A DNA stretch of 64,000 nt from an uncultured Bdellovibrio sp. (GCA_963932905.1 CAWVRN010000001.1:416001-480000); one strand, 5' to 3'. Shown: positions 33,001 to 42,000, numbered from the stretch's first letter. Made by a program: the numbers.

Positions 33001-36000
33001 TCGGCAGCTTTGACAAATATGCATGGCAGTTTGTGGGTGGAAAACAAATCAATAGAAAACGTAAAGGTATGAGTGACCTTCAAGCGACATCTCCAGAATC
33101 TGATGCTTTTTCAAAAGATCTGAGAAAGCGTGGATTTAAATTTGTAGGCTCAACCGTGATTTACGCGCATATGCAAGCGGTAGGTATGGTCAACGATCAC
33201 ACCGTGAAATGCTTTCGTCATAAAGACTGCTAAAACAGATCCAATTTATTGCTGACAGCTGAAAACTAGATTGTTAATACTAGTCGAATGACGTCTACAA
33301 TTGATCTTTGGATCGAATACATTTTACGCTTTTCTCATTTGGTGGCCGGTATTTCCTGGATCGGTAGTTCGTTTTATTTTATCTGGCTTGATAGCAGTTT
33401 TATGCCACCCGAAAAGCCACGTCATAATGTCGAAGGTGAAGTCTACATGGTTCATGGCGGCTTTTATTACCAAGTGGACAAACGAAAAATTTATCCTGGT
33501 GAAATTCCAAAAACACTTCATTGGTTCAAATGGGAAGCAACCCTAACCTGGATCACGGGATTTTTTCTTTTTGCTTTTTTGTATTACTTAAAAGGCGCGA
33601 CTTTGCTGATTAATCCTGAAGCCCTGGCATTGACTCAGTGGCAAGCGATTGGTTTAAGTTTGGGTTTAATTATTGGCTCTTGGTTTGTTTATGATTTGAT
33701 ATGGAATGCAAATCTGATCAAAGTAAAAGCGATAAGTATTTTTCTTTCGCTGTGCTATTTCGTCGCTATGATTTACGGATTAACGCGAATATTCAGTGGG
33801 CGAGGCGCCTTCATATTGATGGGCGTAATCATGGGAAGCTTGATGTTGTTGAACGTATGGGTTCGAATTCTTCCTGGACAAGCCAAAATGCTTAAAGAAG
33901 CCTTGGCCGGACAAGTTCCCGATTATTCTGTCAGTTTGAAATCTAAAGTGCGATCTGTTCACAATACCTATTTTATTTTTCCTGTTTTGTTCATTATGCT
34001 GAGCAATCACTACCCGGGCATTTATGGTCATCAGTACAATTGGGTGCTGTTAATTATCCTCAGTGTGTCGGGCGCTTTGGTTCGTCATACAATGGTAACT
34101 AAAAACACGAAAGAGCGTTGGCTGCTGATTCCTGCCGCGATTGGACTGATGGCTCTTGTTTTCGTAAGTTCAATTCAAGTAAAATCAAGCTCCAATTCCT
34201 CCATGCCCGTGCCAGATAATATGGATTACGCCTACGTAAGAAACATAGTCGAGGCCCGTTGTCAAAGATGCCATAGCACACATAACACCGATGAAAATTT
34301 CAAAGTTCCCCCGAAAGATGTCGTTCTTGAAACCGAAGATCAGCTCAGAAAACACAAAGACTTAATTATCAAGCAAGTTGAAAACAAAGTCATGCCGCTG
34401 GCGAATTTGACGGGCATGACGGATAGTGAGCGTGAAATTTTGGTCAGTTGGATGAAGAAACAGTAGCTAGTAAACCAGCACGCGATGAATTCCTCCGTCT
34501 GGGAAAACTTTCACCTTAATCTGCTCTATCGTTTCTTGATTAGAAATTAAAAATTCTTTTTTATTTCCGGCAAATGCTTTTACCGTGGTTCTGGCAGCCA
34601 GTTCAACCCACTGTCCATTTTTCAAGCCCTCTAGGCTGATGGCAGACGGGTTGTTGTTCACGAAATATTTAAAATCTAAAACAACTCTTTTTATCACGGT
34701 CGGTTTACCAAGTTTTAAAACAAGTTCTTCGAAATGACCGGGTTTACGACTGCGGGCGGATTCAAATCCATCGAACATGTGAATCGGAGGAAACGGGGAA
34801 ACAACTTGATCGGCCGGTCCGTAATGTTGGTTGCTGACGCTGACCAGACAACCTCCAAACGCAGCAGAGGCCAGATTGATCGGACGCTTTTTATCCATAA
34901 GTCGTTTTATATTTTTTTCGGTCTCTAGCGCCGAAGCGGCATAAGGAATAGTCAGTGGTTTATGAGATTTTGGAATAACTTCAGTAAACCGGGTAGCGGT
35001 GGCTTCTTCGAAGAGCTTATAATTTTTCGCCTCTTCCGAAGGAAGCTCAGAGTACAAACCTAAACGAGATAATCCCCCATCAGGAAATACATTCACTTTA
35101 ATTTTTGAATACGGTTTTTCGCTGAGAGGACTGGTTTGTTTAATTTTCACGACACCGTGGCCAACTAGATTCTTCTTTGGGAGTATCAAATCCCAGTTTT
35201 TTGCCGCTTCATCGTAGCCGTATAACTCAATCGCTTCGACTTGATTTCCATCATGGTATTTGGTGGAAACTTGAATGTAACGAATAGGTCCCGCCTTCTT
35301 CATTTCAAATTCAAGTGTGTGACGATCGCTGGGATTGTGGCGTACGGATTCCCAACTATCCATCACTTTACCCTGAGCACAAAACAACTGCGGATCAAAG
35401 ATGGGCTGAAACGAACTGAATAGGTTATCAGCTTGAGCAAATCGTTCATCCGTAACTGAGATTACTTTTGCACCCACTGCCAAATTGTATTGTGCTAATG
35501 GATCTACGGGTCCTGTTTCAACAATGGGATCTGGACGACACGGAATGAAGGCATCAAAAATAAGGGCTTTATAGCCTCGATTCACAATTTGTTCTTGCGA
35601 GAATTTTTTGGGATCAAATTCAGTGTGGAATTTATCAAAGGAAATTCCGCTCAGATTCAATGTTCTAATCAATTCTTGTGCAACTTCAGCGATAAACGGT
35701 ACGGCACCGTTGTCGCCGTTAGCAAAAATAACAAAACCCAATCCTTGATCAGGTCCCGCATAGCAATGCATGAACAAGGCGCGGAAACCTTCGTTGGCAC
35801 CTTGATGAATGACGATTTTGTTTTCGCCGGCTTCGGCAATAAATATTCCTAGACCCATGAGGGCCCCCATGAATTCAAAACTGCCTTTGTCACGACCATG
35901 CAGCATCAAAGCGGCCGTATCGTGTGAAATAGAACCGGAGCCTTCAAGATTCTGATACGCACGAGTCAAATGGACCAAGAATTGGGCCATATCAGCAGAA

Positions 36001-39000: not shown

Positions 39001-42000
39001 CCTCCGCCTTCGCCGACTTCCACCATTCCATTTACGGATTTAATTGCCGTCGCATTTTTTAATAAATGATCCGCTAGAGGAGCTGGGATGTAGTCGTGGT
39101 AATATTCGATTTCAAAAAAGGATTTCATAGTACTAGCTGCCTCGGTAGGTGCTGTAACCATATGGGCTTAACAATAAAGGCACGTGGTATTTTCTGTTTG
39201 TGTCTGTGATATTGAACGCAACGGGTACAGCTAAAAAAAACGGAGTTAGATTTTGCTTCTTAAAGTAGTTTTCAATTTCAAAAGTTAAACGGTATTGCGC
39301 GATTTCATAGGGGCAATCAAAATTGATTCGTCCATCACTATTAGTTTTATCTTGTTTTACTTGTGACCACTGATTTCCATTTAATTTTTCTAACGTCACA
39401 GTGACATCTTTAGCTGGCATGCCCAAATTGATGTCCAAAATATGAGTACTAATCATGTTACGATCCTTTGTTTTCTGATAATTTAGATTTATACGATAGT
39501 ATCTGCGCAGCGATACTAATGGCAATTTCGGGCGGCGTGTTGTCACCGAAATCTAGCCCAATCGGGCAATGTAGTCGCTGAAGAGCCTCATCGGAAACCC
39601 CGAGCTTGCGCAGTTCACCTTTGATCTTTTCACCTTTAAGTTTTGAGCCTATAACGCCAAGAAATGAAAAACGTTGATGCTGCTTCAGGGCTTTCTCTAG
39701 AACGGGAACATCGGCTGCATGTCCTTGAGTCAGCGACATTAAATAAGTTCCGTCGGGTAATGCGTCTACATGATTTGCCAAATTGTCTGTTTGAATTTTT
39801 TTTATGTTGAATGAATCTGGCAATTTATCTACCCATTCTTTGCGGTTATCAAAAACTTGTAGCTGACATGACCACGTTTGCATGACTCGGCACAGTTCCT
39901 GCGAAACATGTCCTGCACCAAAGATCGCCACCGACCAATTACTAAAGAACTGCGTATCAAAAAATACGCTGACCTCACCACCGCAGGTCATTCCAATATC
40001 AGTCTGTAAATTATAAGTTCCCATTGAAGGAGCCGATTTCGCTTGCAGCATTTCAACAGCGCGTTTGATACAAAACCCTTCAATTTTGCCACCGCCTACG
40101 GTTCCAAATCGTAATCCCTCTTTGGTCACCAGCATCTTAGCACCGACTTCTTGAGGTGCACTACCTCGGACGTTTACCAGGGTTACGATCACGTGATCTG
40201 TATGACTGCGGGATACATCACTCAGATGTTCAAGCCAAACGGTCACGGCGTTAACTCTTTCATTTTCATATAAATCTGCTCTTGAGTGGCCGGGATTTTC
40301 AATTTCACAGGTTTATCTAGTTTGGCGACGGCATTTTTTGGTTTATAGTAACTGAGTGCATTTTTCACGGCCGACCAAACGGAAATCGCAAGTAAAAGTG
40401 GCGGCTCACCGACCGCTTTGCTGGCGCGAACGTTACGCACATTAATTTGATTATCAATGAGATGGCATTTAAATACGCGCGGGATATCTTGCACGCTGGG
40501 GATTTTATAAGTACTTGGTGTGTTCGACAGCAGTCGACCATTTTTATAGAATAAGTTTTCTGTAGTTACCCAGCCCATTCCTTGTACAAAGGCACCGGTT
40601 ACTTGCCCATGATCGATGGCCTCATTAATTGGACGTCCTAGATCCATCAGGATTTCCGAGCGTAACACTTTTAATTCACCTGTGTAACGATCGATTGAAA
40701 CTTCGCTGGCCGCTACGCCGTTAGTGAAATAGAAGAATGGGCTACCTTGACCAGTTTCCTTATTATAGAAAATTCCGGGGTATTTGAAATAACCCTGCTG
40801 AGTTAGCGATTGACGATTTAAGTAGGCTTCTAAAACGAGTTCACTAAACGCGATGGTTTCTTTCGGATTTGAATTATCGTACACTTGACCATTTTGAAAT
40901 TCGATCGTTTGCCAATGTTGAACGGCTTCGATTTGAATTTCTGGAGCGGTACCGGCGCCGGCGGTGGGTTTACCACGCCACGCTTTTGGGCGCGCTAGCA
41001 TGGCCTTGGCCACCTTGGCTAGTCGTTCGCGTATACCTTGTGCGGCCGTTAAAGCCGCTTGGCAGTTGATATCGCTACCACTAGAGGCTGCTGTTGCTGA
41101 CGTATTTGGAATTTTCTCGGTAGATGTCGTCATTACTTTTACATCTTCAATAGGAATAGAAAAACATTCCGCAACGACCTGTGCGATTTTGATATTCACA
41201 CCCTGGCCCATTTCGGTGGCGCCTGTAGACACCTGAACGGATCCGTCCATGTGCACATTCACAAGCGCACTACCTTGATTTAAAAAACGAGTTGTAAATG
41301 AAATGCCAAACTTTACTGCTGTTACGGACAAACCTCGATACGTCGAATGATGACTGGCATTGTGGTCGTCTATTTCTTTGCGCCACTGTTTGTATTGCGT
41401 TTGTTTTTCAATATCCGTAAATAGTTGCGGCAAAACACTATCTTCTATTTTTTGCCCATAAGGAGTCGTTTGGTCTTTTTGATATGTGTTTATTTTTCTG
41501 ATTTCTAAAGAGTCTTTTTTCAGAAAAACAGCGATGTCTTCAATAATGGATTCGATAGTGGCAACACCTTTGGGGCCGCCGAATCCACGAAATGCTGTAT
41601 TGGGAGCCGTGTGAGTTTTACAAACTTGTCCGGCCACTTTAAAATTAGGAATGAAGTAGGCGTTATCTAAATGAAGCATAGCGCGTTCCATAATGGCGGT
41701 CGATAGATCGGCGTAGGCGCCGCCGTCAGAAAATAACTCGGCTTTCAAAGCCGTGATTTTCCCTGAATTATCAAAACCCACTTCGTAGAAATTTTTAAAT
41801 GGATTGCGTTTGCCTGTCATGATCATGTCATCATCTTTAGTCAAAATGATGCGTGCCGGGCGTTTTAGTTTCTGTGCCACAAGTGCCGCAAATACGGCAA
41901 AAGGGGCCGCTTGAGATTCTTTGCCTCCAAATGCGCCGCCCATACGCTTAACAACACATACAACTTGGTGATGTCGTAAACCTAAAGCCTCGGCGACTAG

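Follow-up and report, generated by a model that had tools for sequence, protein, structure and literature searches.

A beta-lactamase-fold module as candidate allantoinase in a four-module urate-catabolism fusion protein of an uncultured Bdellovibrio

A 64,000-nucleotide stretch of the genome of an uncultured Bdellovibrio sp. (the window; GCA_963932905.1, CAWVRN010000001.1:416001-480000) encodes a four-module fusion protein whose beta-lactamase/PBP-fold serine hydrolase module (bla) is, on comparative evidence, probably an allantoinase. Such an enzyme would be the third, non-homologous kind of allantoinase beside AllB/DAL1 and PuuE, and the polypeptide as a whole would make up the lower half of urate catabolism. 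Lyase activity of the malate-synthase-like (MS-like) module at the N terminus is somewhat favoured by the comparisons below, and the chances that both assignments hold together appear even. Our literature search found no paper on a serine-hydrolase allantoinase or on the role of the bacterial MS-like module.

The fusion ORF (34467..39161, minus strand) comprises 1564 aa counted from the first ATG. Its true start is likely Met12 at 39128, giving 1553 aa, because the HIU hydrolase gene stops at 39133 and this ATG follows 4 bases on; the database copy of the protein (P0003) is 1553 aa long. The chain consists of the MS-like module (residues 12-700; 37062..39128), an OHCU decarboxylase (residues about 701-831; 36669..37061), bla (residues 832-1226; 35484..36668), and an allantoicase of two jelly-roll repeats (residues 1230-1372 and 1436-1564; 34470..35483), all on the minus strand. 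Pfam matches over the gathering cut-off were MS_TIM-barrel (251-463, 67.1 bits), MS_C (536-655, 39.2 bits), OHCU_decarbox (PF09349; 718-829, 69.5 bits against 24, spanning profile positions 39-154 only), Beta-lactamase (PF00144; 837-1155, 107.7 bits against 27, E 9.1e-31), and Allantoicase (PF03561; 153.9 bits over the two repeats). The OHCU decarboxylase and allantoicase modules stay below the NCBIfam cut-offs (TIGR03180, 64 bits against 139; equivalog TIGR02961, 174.4 bits against 277.9). ORF listing and Pfam agree with the anatomy that a genome-wide survey's note had described, and the recurrence that it claimed was also seen: at E<=0.001, the database search matched bla to 478 proteins with lengths of 860-2737 aa, and 116 of the 120 matches listed are 1375-1641 aa long.

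The gene lies, as that note had stated, in a purine-catabolism operon whose members are visible by Pfam. Convergent with it is a PuuD-type membrane urate oxidase (33288..34466, plus strand), recognised by Urate_ox_N and weak haem/cytochrome-c matches. The minus strand carries the genes for 5-hydroxyisourate (HIU) hydrolase/transthyretin (39133..39546; C terminus ...YRGS-stop), XdhC (39458-40246), the large subunit of xanthine dehydrogenase (XDH; 40243-42603), and the XDH FAD/2Fe-2S subunit (42603-44024). At the operon head, also on the minus strand, stands a CDA-fold deaminase, possibly a guanine deaminase (44057..44557), which does not reach the cut-off of the TadA model (87.9 bits against 150). 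Anatomy, gene context, and phyletic patterns are thereby established as observations.

From comparative genomics, we infer every catalytic activity of the fusion as follows. The neighbouring deaminase, XDH, PuuD, and HIU hydrolase would take guanine or xanthine to OHCU, from which the OHCU decarboxylase module would yield (S)-allantoin. The bla module would then open the hydantoin ring to give allantoate, putatively through an acyl-enzyme formed on Ser888, the nucleophile, with the usual motif roles falling to Lys891, Tyr978, and His1119. The allantoicase module would free urea and (S)-ureidoglycolate, and the MS-like module would handle the ureidoglycolate/glyoxylate end, most likely as ureidoglycolate lyase and possibly retaining malate synthase activity.

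No other recognisable allantoinase was found in this genome (completeness 98.63%), as the survey's note had reported. The sole match to the AllB model TIGR03178, at C43:14571-15818, reaches 271.2 bits against a cut-off of 357.85; this protein is clearly a dihydroorotase, with 677.4 bits on equivalog NF006559 (cut-off 482), and was rejected as AllB. A genuine AllB from a related genome, used as query, retrieved only the same dihydroorotase (155 bits, 32% identity), besides which the sole Amidohydro_1 protein is HutI. The PuuE model (TIGR03212) and the AllA-type ureidoglycolate lyase model (PF04115) had no matches in the genome, nor was urease found there. The malate synthase A-isocitrate lyase pair already noted elsewhere in the genome is indeed present on contig C3, where isocitrate lyase immediately follows a canonical malate synthase A scoring 689.6 bits, over the cut-off of 594.5 (aceB-aceA).

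The bla module carries the motifs S888-L-S-K891 (36489-36500), Y978-S-G (36228-36230), and H1119-Q-G (35805-35807). Their Ser, Lys, Tyr, and His (S57, K60, Y147, and H288 in module numbering) do not vary among the 25 family members aligned, nor do the family-specific residues H939, H945-Y946, N1123, and R1127; in the same 25 sequences, the Asn of the YxN motif is replaced by Gly. An AF2 model of the module (pLDDT 93.7) places the motifs on canonical elements, namely, helix 56-73, the loop ahead of helix 150-163, and strand 283-292. Foldseek returned R61 DD-peptidase, class C enzymes, and family VIII esterases as the nearest solved folds (probability 1.00, E 2e-21 to 1e-18, TM 0.65-0.78), at ~20% identity. 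The module was rejected as a class C beta-lactamase proper, since it misses the cut-off of equivalog NF033085 (47.4 bits against 415), and nothing suggests a role in antibiotic resistance. Its family comprises 97 representative clusters at E<1e-30, beyond which scores drop to a generic ~100-120 bits, and splits from seven generic outgroups in the tree (SH-aLRT 100); judged by these sequence relationships, it is a distinct clade. Identity of the module across the phylum is 47-55%, and Ser, Lys, Tyr, and His are kept in six of the seven genomic loci checked. The exception, G270, reads FKFSGGG, with the catalytic Tyr changed to Phe.

The proposal of the survey's note that this domain stands in for the missing allantoinase is supported by its complementarity with AllB, by cassette swaps within genera, and by independent eukaryotic fusions, as well as by the conserved catalytic residues on a canonical fold. 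Our phylum sample held 301 genomes, 61 with and 240 without allantoicase, all related to one another, so that the counts overstate independence. The bla module is present in 34 of the 61, always within the allantoicase ORF. AllB exceeds its cut-off in 27 genomes: G270 and 26 of the 27 that have allantoicase but no bla; in the remaining one (G163), a 312-bit AllB fragment adjoins the allantoicase gene. The tally among the 61 genomes is thus 33 with bla only, 27 with AllB only, one with both, and none with neither, and the sole genome with both is G270, the one whose bla has lost its catalytic Tyr. None of the 240 genomes without allantoicase has AllB, and none of the 301 has PuuE over cut-off. 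Weaker TIGR03178 matches (284-319 bits) are scattered among the genomes irrespective of the pathway; G065 is the only bla genome with one, on another contig. Within genus g83, G073 has the order HIUase-[MS-like-OHCU decarboxylase-bla-allantoicase]-PuuD, whereas G224 has PuuD-AllB-allantoicase-OHCU decarboxylase-HIUase-DUF6986. Genus g99 likewise holds both cassette types (G236 versus G215).

Within the phylum, two genes swap jointly, bla and MS-like on one side against AllB and DUF6986 or AllA on the other; the mapping of bla to AllB must therefore draw its weight from other phyla and from a single dinoflagellate transcript. The MS-like module is unlikely to be the allantoinase, because, of 80 loci examined in other phyla, 24 have AllB (at least 230 bits) close to the MS-like gene. 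Similarly, bla is unlikely to be the lyase, because it is fused with an AllA-type ureidoglycolate lyase and an allantoicase in protein P0287 of the dinoflagellate Polykrikos. Read from these distributions, the correspondence of bla to AllB is unique. Further proteins join OHCU decarboxylase, bla, and allantoicase (P0267, on a 242-kb contig) or bla and allantoicase alone (Halobacteriovorax, Biecheleria, and Oithona), and bla sits between OHCU decarboxylase and allantoicase in four architectures. Among 24 stand-alone bla homologues, 10 end in peroxisomal-type C-terminal tripeptides; these carry no partner domain. The family was earlier taken to be typical of Bdellovibrionota, a view that gives way to its occurrence in dinoflagellates, one haptophyte, and one copepod record.

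The MS-like module is a member of a widespread family of bacterial malate-synthase-like proteins of ~690 aa linked to urate clusters. In at least five phyla, its members share such clusters with AllB. Of 48 long MS-like loci, 27 are without a urate gene within 9 kb. In an alignment to E. coli malate synthase A (MSA), R249, E334, D362, W452, and D575 correspond to R166, E250, D278, W365, and D447; we take Arg166 and Asp447 of MSA to be catalytic and Glu250 and Asp278 to be Mg ligands. W360 replaces Arg276 of MSA, a conserved residue of the MSA motif G-R-W-D-Y, and is invariant in the MS-like family. Isocitrate lyase was near the MS-like gene in one of the 80 loci, as a weak match, and its partner in the genomes examined is the canonical MSA, not the MS-like protein. 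AllA was absent from the 80 MS-like loci and from five further MS-like genomes, and neither AllA nor DUF6986 occurs in the 34 bla genomes. Of the 27 AllB-type genomes, 24 have DUF6986 and three have AllA. MS-like, DUF6986, and AllA exclude one another among the 61 allantoicase genomes; DUF6986 is also present in 11 genomes without allantoicase. From these sequence patterns, the module may have ureidoglycolate lyase activity, malate synthase activity, or the two combined.

A rather unlikely alternative keeps bla as allantoinase and makes the MS-like module only a pathway-dedicated malate synthase (glyoxylate plus acetyl-CoA to malate), ureidoglycolate being split by allantoicase or by spontaneous decay. 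It is consistent with the retention of all five MSA residues aligned above. In addition, 21 of the 34 fusion genomes lack both MSA-like and MSG proteins, glyoxylate carboligase is over cut-off in none of six fusion genomes tested, and our genome lacks urease; glyoxylate would therefore need a sink, which malate synthase activity would supply, and, with urease missing, this part of the pathway offers no obvious gain other than glyoxylate. Malate synthase genes co-located or co-regulated with allantoin degradation are also on record in PMC10120013 (yeast DAL7, bacterial glcB). However, by the criterion given there, these are canonical enzymes accompanied by a dedicated AllA/DAL3-type lyase, whereas AllA is missing from the fusion genomes and MS-like loci. 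The mutual exclusion with DUF6986 and AllA, the score against malate synthase A model TIGR01344 (123.1 bits, cut-off 594.5), the change of Arg276 to Trp, and the aceB-aceA pair already in the genome also argue against it. The single chain to malate of the survey's note fares accordingly: its allantoinase part is upheld by the complementarity of bla and AllB, whereas its malate-synthase label is not, given this score and the separate purine-linked family. The note had named no module for the ureidoglycolate lyase step.

The lyase assignment has a precedent in the zebrafish MS-like protein DrMSL, a proven ureidoglycolate lyase (Dembech et al. 2023, PMC10120013). According to that paper, Arg276 (now Ile) and Trp365 are lost in DrMSL, the acetyl-CoA site is unconserved, and there is a 2-aa insertion. 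By that description, the bacterial MS-like proteins share the loss of Arg276 but differ in having Trp at this position, in keeping Trp365, and in their ~690-aa length; the ureidoglycolate lyase clade presented there contains eukaryotes only. The same paper hypothesises an ancestral bifunctional-type enzyme, and a bifunctional MS-like module would be of this kind, letting one chain convert OHCU to malate and two urea without another lyase or malate synthase. The full combination, in which bla-fold enzymes are a third allantoinase class common to predatory Bdellovibrionota and peroxisomes (dinoflagellates, haptophytes, and some animals) and the MS-like module is a bifunctional ureidoglycolate lyase/malate synthase, strikes us as unlikely.

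It is improbable that bla hydrolyses another amide or ester (a ureide, side product, or peptide) or regulates, with allantoin opened by a dihydroorotase-type amidohydrolase or an unrecognised enzyme. Cyclic amidohydrolases are promiscuous, which lends this idea some weight together with the 271-bit score of the dihydroorotase on the allantoinase model, the loss of the YxN Asn, and the ~20% identity to the closest solved relatives. Yet that protein is a clear dihydroorotase equivalog, and the 284-319-bit matches are independent of the pathway. The 33/27/1/0 tally would be difficult to account for without a replacement of AllB by bla, and so would the Tyr-to-Phe change in G270 and the placement of bla between OHCU decarboxylase and allantoicase. 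A catalytically dead scaffold or linker holding the other modules is barely credible: degenerate domains do sometimes occur in large fusions, and the case of G270 shows that a variant with Phe for the catalytic Tyr can be maintained, but the invariant Ser, Lys, Tyr, and His, the stand-alone homologues with peroxisomal-type endings, and the identity maintained across the phylum speak against it.

As a candidate allantoinase, bla shares with AllB/DAL1 the proposed reaction and, with AllB of sister genomes, the place beside allantoicase. It differs in being a serine hydrolase with no sequence match to TIGR03178, whereas AllB is a TIM-barrel metalloenzyme of the amidohydrolase superfamily. PuuE, reportedly found through genomic logic by Ramazzina and colleagues in 2008 as a non-homologous, metal-independent allantoinase, offers a precedent, although its polysaccharide-deacetylase fold is unlike that of bla. 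Class C beta-lactamases, Streptomyces R61 DD-peptidase, and family VIII esterases have the same fold and three motifs (SxxK, Tyr loop, and H/K-x-G) as bla, which departs from them in its distant sequence, in Y-S-G for Y-x-N, and in being cytoplasmic and fused. Natural fusions of consecutive urate-pathway enzymes are described in a review (PMC13751858) for Urah-Urad, the "allantoin synthase"; that protein has two modules (HIUase and OHCU decarboxylase), whereas the present fusion has four, from OHCU decarboxylase to the predicted end of the pathway.

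The fusion gene is a single open frame on the minus strand (34467-39161; 1564 aa counted from the first ATG), in which five Pfam families exceeded their gathering scores: MS_TIM-barrel (residues 251-463), MS_C (536-655), OHCU_decarbox (718-829), Beta-lactamase (837-1155; E 9.1e-31), and Allantoicase, the latter in two stretches (1230-1372 and 1436-1564). The modular composition described in the genome-wide survey's note was thus confirmed. No module reached an NCBIfam equivalog cut-off (174 bits versus 278 for allantoicase, 123 versus 594.5 for malate synthase A, and 47 versus 415 for class C beta-lactamase), indicating that all of them are divergent. 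The gene lies directly downstream of those for HIU hydrolase (HIUase), XdhC, both xanthine dehydrogenase (XDH) subunits, and a CDA-fold deaminase, and runs toward a PuuD-type urate oxidase gene (33288-34466) in convergent orientation. HIUase ends in ...YRGS with its stop at 39133; Met12 is the likelier start of the fusion protein, because the next ATG is at 39128 and the database copy is 1553 aa long. The deaminase at the head of this purine operon (44057-44557, minus strand) is TadA-like (87.9 bits versus a model cut-off of 150) and may be a guanine deaminase supplying XDH. No Pfam or NCBIfam match was obtained for the 202-aa ORF (44645-45253, minus strand) that separates the deaminase gene from that of an M24 aminopeptidase.

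Allantoinase (EC 3.5.2.5) has two known, mutually unrelated forms. Consistently with the survey's claim, neither is recognizable in this genome, which is 98.63% complete. The model of the amidohydrolase-type enzyme (AllB) matched one protein only, at 271 bits versus a cut-off of 358, and this protein passes the dihydroorotase equivalog model (677 bits versus 482). HutI is the only other Amidohydro_1 protein, and a genuine AllB from a related genome used as query retrieved nothing beyond the dihydroorotase. The PuuE model had no match, failing also on four polysaccharide deacetylases. Searches of this genome for an AllA-type ureidoglycolate lyase, DUF6986, and the urease alpha subunit were negative, while a canonical aceB-aceA pair (malate synthase and isocitrate lyase) was located on another contig, as anticipated. 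With no urease alpha subunit found, the two urea molecules per urate may be discarded, and carbon and energy rather than nitrogen may be what the pathway supplies.

The distribution of the beta-lactamase-fold module (bla) was assessed in one fixed sample of 301 phylum genomes searched with four queries. Allantoicase was found in 61 genomes and bla (E<=1e-30) in 34, all within those 61 and always in the same ORF as allantoicase; 32 of these ORFs measure 1413-1645 aa and the other two ~775 aa. AllB scored above cut-off in 27 of the 301 genomes and PuuE in none. The 27 allantoicase genomes without bla encode a stand-alone allantoicase of ~350 aa, which adjoins an above-cut-off AllB in 26 of them and a 312-bit AllB fragment in the remaining one (G163). 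The 61 allantoicase genomes, which are related and hence not 61 independent trials, therefore comprise 33 with bla only, 27 with AllB only, one with both (G270), and none with neither. No AllB above cut-off was detected in the 240 genomes devoid of allantoicase. Dihydroorotase-like matches below the cut-off (284-319 bits) were scattered irrespective of the pathway; only one of these matches falls in a bla genome (G065), on a contig other than that of the fusion. bla occurs in 20 genera and AllB in 16, the latter counted by genome handles. Two genera (g83 and g99) contain both cassette types, in different species and within otherwise similar clusters: in g83, the layout is XDH / HIUase-[MS-like-OHCUd-bla-alc]-PuuD in G073 versus PuuD-AllB-alc-OHCUd-HIUase-DUF6986 in G224 (alc, allantoicase; OHCUd, OHCU decarboxylase; MS-like, malate-synthase-like module), and G236 and G215 of g99 display the same contrast. 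In G270, which carries both AllB and bla, the bla-allantoicase gene (2351-4570 of locus L108, G270:C12) has the catalytic Tyr replaced by Phe (FKFSGGG) and a second family-invariant His by Ser. Loss of the catalytic Tyr is as predicted by redundancy with AllB; the four catalytic residues are kept in all six other bla loci examined. Downstream of the G270 gene, at a distance of 1.5 kb, is a 166-aa fragment of allantoicase. In another genome (L109, G107:C32; 4702-9188) the fusion is broken between the OHCUd and bla modules, with a 777-aa bla-allantoicase frame preceded just upstream by MS-like-OHCUd and a frame change within OHCUd; the split is either natural or a sequencing frameshift.

Two gene pairs thus swap jointly in the phylum, i.e., bla and MS-like versus AllB and either DUF6986 or AllA. 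A role of bla as the ureidoglycolate lyase of its pair was ruled out by a 1004-aa protein of the dinoflagellate Polykrikos kofoidii, which combines bla with an AllA-type ureidoglycolate lyase domain (PF04115) and allantoicase. Likewise, MS-like as the allantoinase was dismissed on the basis of its coexistence with AllB (>=230 bits, a level to be compared with the 155 bits of our dihydroorotase with the same query) within 9 kb in 24 of 80 loci from other phyla, where AllB-allantoicase-OHCUd-HIUase-MS-like is a common layout. Moonlighting of the dihydroorotase as allantoinase was rejected, as this protein is a clear dihydroorotase equivalog and sub-cut-off AllB matches are unrelated to the pathway. 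The occurrence of MS-like alongside AllB and of bla alongside an AllA-type lyase therefore sets bla in correspondence with AllB. Independent comparative tests (the genome tally, the genus-level swaps, G270, and the Polykrikos fusion) give good support to the proposal that bla is an allantoinase of a third, serine type, which we consider quite probable from these sequence comparisons.

Acyl-serine opening of a cyclic amide is the defining chemistry of the beta-lactamase/PBP fold. Ser888 and Lys891 (SxxK), Tyr978-Ser-Gly, and His1119 are invariant in 25 aligned bla sequences, the last within an H-Q-G/A motif resembling the HTG of R61 DD-peptidase; His939, His945-Tyr946, Asn1123, and Arg1127 are further invariant positions. 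In the AlphaFold model of bla (pLDDT 93.7, pTM 0.92) the three motifs sit on the helix, loop, and strand that are canonical for this fold, and Foldseek, with identities of ~15-21%, related this model to R61 DD-peptidase, LACTB, class C enzymes, and family VIII esterases. Among solved structures, a sequence-profile search reached E 2e-13 at best; sequence and fold searches of solved structures returned distant relatives (~20% identity) and no functional hint, and a protein atlas search returned generic beta-lactamase clusters only. The Asn of the YxN motif, the residue to which the acylamido side chain in beta-lactams and peptides binds, is lost in the bla family, which fits a different, small substrate. 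Together, the modeled fold, the motifs, and the known chemistry show a predicted competence, not specificity. If bla acts as proposed, it would represent a third form of EC 3.5.2.5, hydantoin-ring opening would be a new reaction type for this fold, the pathway hole would be filled in 33 of the 61 sampled allantoicase genomes, and hundreds of entries annotated as "serine hydrolase" or "malate synthase" would need correction. Among the papers listed, literature searches outside subscription journals found none linking allantoinase or allantoicase to a beta-lactamase-fold or serine hydrolase, nor any on the four-module fusion; a search for allantoinase and Bdellovibrio was equally negative, and that for ureidoglycolate lyase and malate synthase-like retrieved PMC10120013 (PNAS) alone. 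The accessible part of a 2026 review of the urate pathway describes Urah-Urad fusions and only two allantoinase types (PMC13751858).

The N-terminal module, with which putative channeling along the chain would end in malate in the survey's boldest reading, is better assigned to a purine-linked family of malate synthase (MS)-like proteins, given its low equivalog score and the replacement of Arg276. This family includes stand-alone homologues of ~690 aa (50-80% identity) and 407 genomic relatives in Bradymonadales, Myxococcota, Planctomycetota, Verrucomicrobiota, and others. Alignment to E. coli malate synthase A (MSA; 3CUZ) revealed that Arg166, Glu250, Asp278, Trp365, and Asp447 are kept and that Arg276 is invariably Trp across the family. 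According to the accessible text of Dembech et al. (PMC10120013), a zebrafish MS-like protein acts as an (S)-ureidoglycolate lyase and lacks MS activity, with Arg276Ile and Trp365Met changes and an unconserved acetyl-CoA site. Arg276 is thus replaced in both proteins, whereas Trp365 is retained in the bacterial one. The same text holds bacterial MS genes in purine operons to be genuine on account of a dedicated AllA-type lyase alongside. Unlike those genes, MS-like is not accompanied by AllA, which was absent from all 80 MS-like loci and five further MS-like genomes. Within the 301-genome sample, AllA and DUF6986 were found in none of the bla genomes; AllA occurs in four genomes, three being AllB-type without DUF6986, and DUF6986 in 35, including the remaining 24 AllB-type genomes. 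The mutual exclusion of the three is an argument for MS-like and DUF6986 occupying the ureidoglycolate lyase slot. Isocitrate lyase is partnered by canonical MSA, not MS-like, wherever both were seen. Several observations count against a lyase-only MS-like, namely, its intact MS catalytic residues, the lack of both MSA-like and malate synthase G proteins in 21 of 34 fusion genomes, the absence of above-cut-off glyoxylate carboligase from six genomes tested, the presence of DUF6986 in 11 genomes without allantoicase, and the lack of a nearby urate gene in 27 of 48 long MS-like loci. Three of five MS-like genomes with such loci have allantoicase elsewhere, and the neighbors of eight of these loci showed no recurrent context. 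A further point against a lyase-only role is that, without urease, glyoxylate is the only evident gain from this stretch of the pathway in our genome and needs a sink. Lyase activity is somewhat favored on these grounds, and we lean to a similar degree toward synthase activity; lyase, synthase, or both are the three candidate options. Eight planctomycete clusters (L031, L032, L034, L042, L050, L052, L070, and L091) are arranged as XDH-AllB-OHCUd-HIUase-MS-like with no allantoicase within their flanks, and two verrucomicrobial genomes with an MS-like gene have none anywhere; allantoate may follow another route in these bacteria.

Besides the ~690-aa MS-like family, the comparison exposed DUF6986 (PF22484, ~450 aa) as a further candidate player at the ureidoglycolate/glyoxylate step. 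It closes the PuuD-AllB-allantoicase-OHCUd-HIUase clusters in 24 of the 27 AllB-type genomes (e.g., L016:12071-13477, L019:12062-13420, L017:12605-13975, L020:12657-14039, and L021:11842-13260), the other three having AllA. HpcH_HpaI (E 0.0015) and MS_TIM-barrel (E 0.0034) matched it below threshold, and a profile comparison with the MS-like family gave a weak, local match (probability 42%); searches for a solved relative or a paper on DUF6986 found none. Its candidate role is that of a third ureidoglycolate lyase type or of a glyoxylate enzyme.

An exhaustive search delimited the bla family to 97 representative clusters at E<1e-30, followed by a drop to ~100-120 bits, the level of generic PF00144 proteins, and a tree split 58 members from seven generic proteins with SH-aLRT 100. 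The family is not limited to Bdellovibrionota: dinoflagellate, Prymnesium parvum, and Oithona nana records extend it well into the eukaryotic algae and perhaps to animals. The four-module architecture spans 1375-1641 aa in 116 of the 120 long matches listed. OHCUd-bla-allantoicase proteins have ~1000 aa, as does P0267, whose contig spans 242 kb; others of this length are in some cases possibly truncated, two falling in 90% clusters with ~1500-aa members. The bla-allantoicase form (~740 aa) occurs in Halobacteriovorax, the dinoflagellate Biecheleria, and a genome record of the copepod O. nana (P0395), possibly a contamination. Stand-alone homologues (~400-450 aa) were found in P. parvum, Symbiodinium microadriaticum, and many further records. 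Ten of 24 aligned ones end in SKL, SRL, ARL, AKM, or ARM, peroxisomal-targeting-type tripeptides that fit the peroxisomal site of eukaryotic purine catabolism stated in the accessible texts of PMC10120013 and PMC9244630. ARL or SKL endings are also present in the multi-module members P0274 (1657 aa), P0353 (943 aa), and P0287 (1004 aa), so that eukaryotes other than the named dinoflagellates may have fused forms as well. In marine algae having homologues with peroxisomal-type endings, bla probably fills a pathway hole too, which bears on marine recycling of purine nitrogen and carbon. Annotated allantoinases have been reported for a cryptophyte and for Karenia, and two algal papers contain no clear statement that algae lack the enzyme. 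Finally, a metagenome-assembled genome labeled Chlamydiales carries the complete MS-like-OHCUd-bla-allantoicase arrangement (L089, 3189-7950), which could reflect a binning error or transfer beyond Bdellovibrionota.
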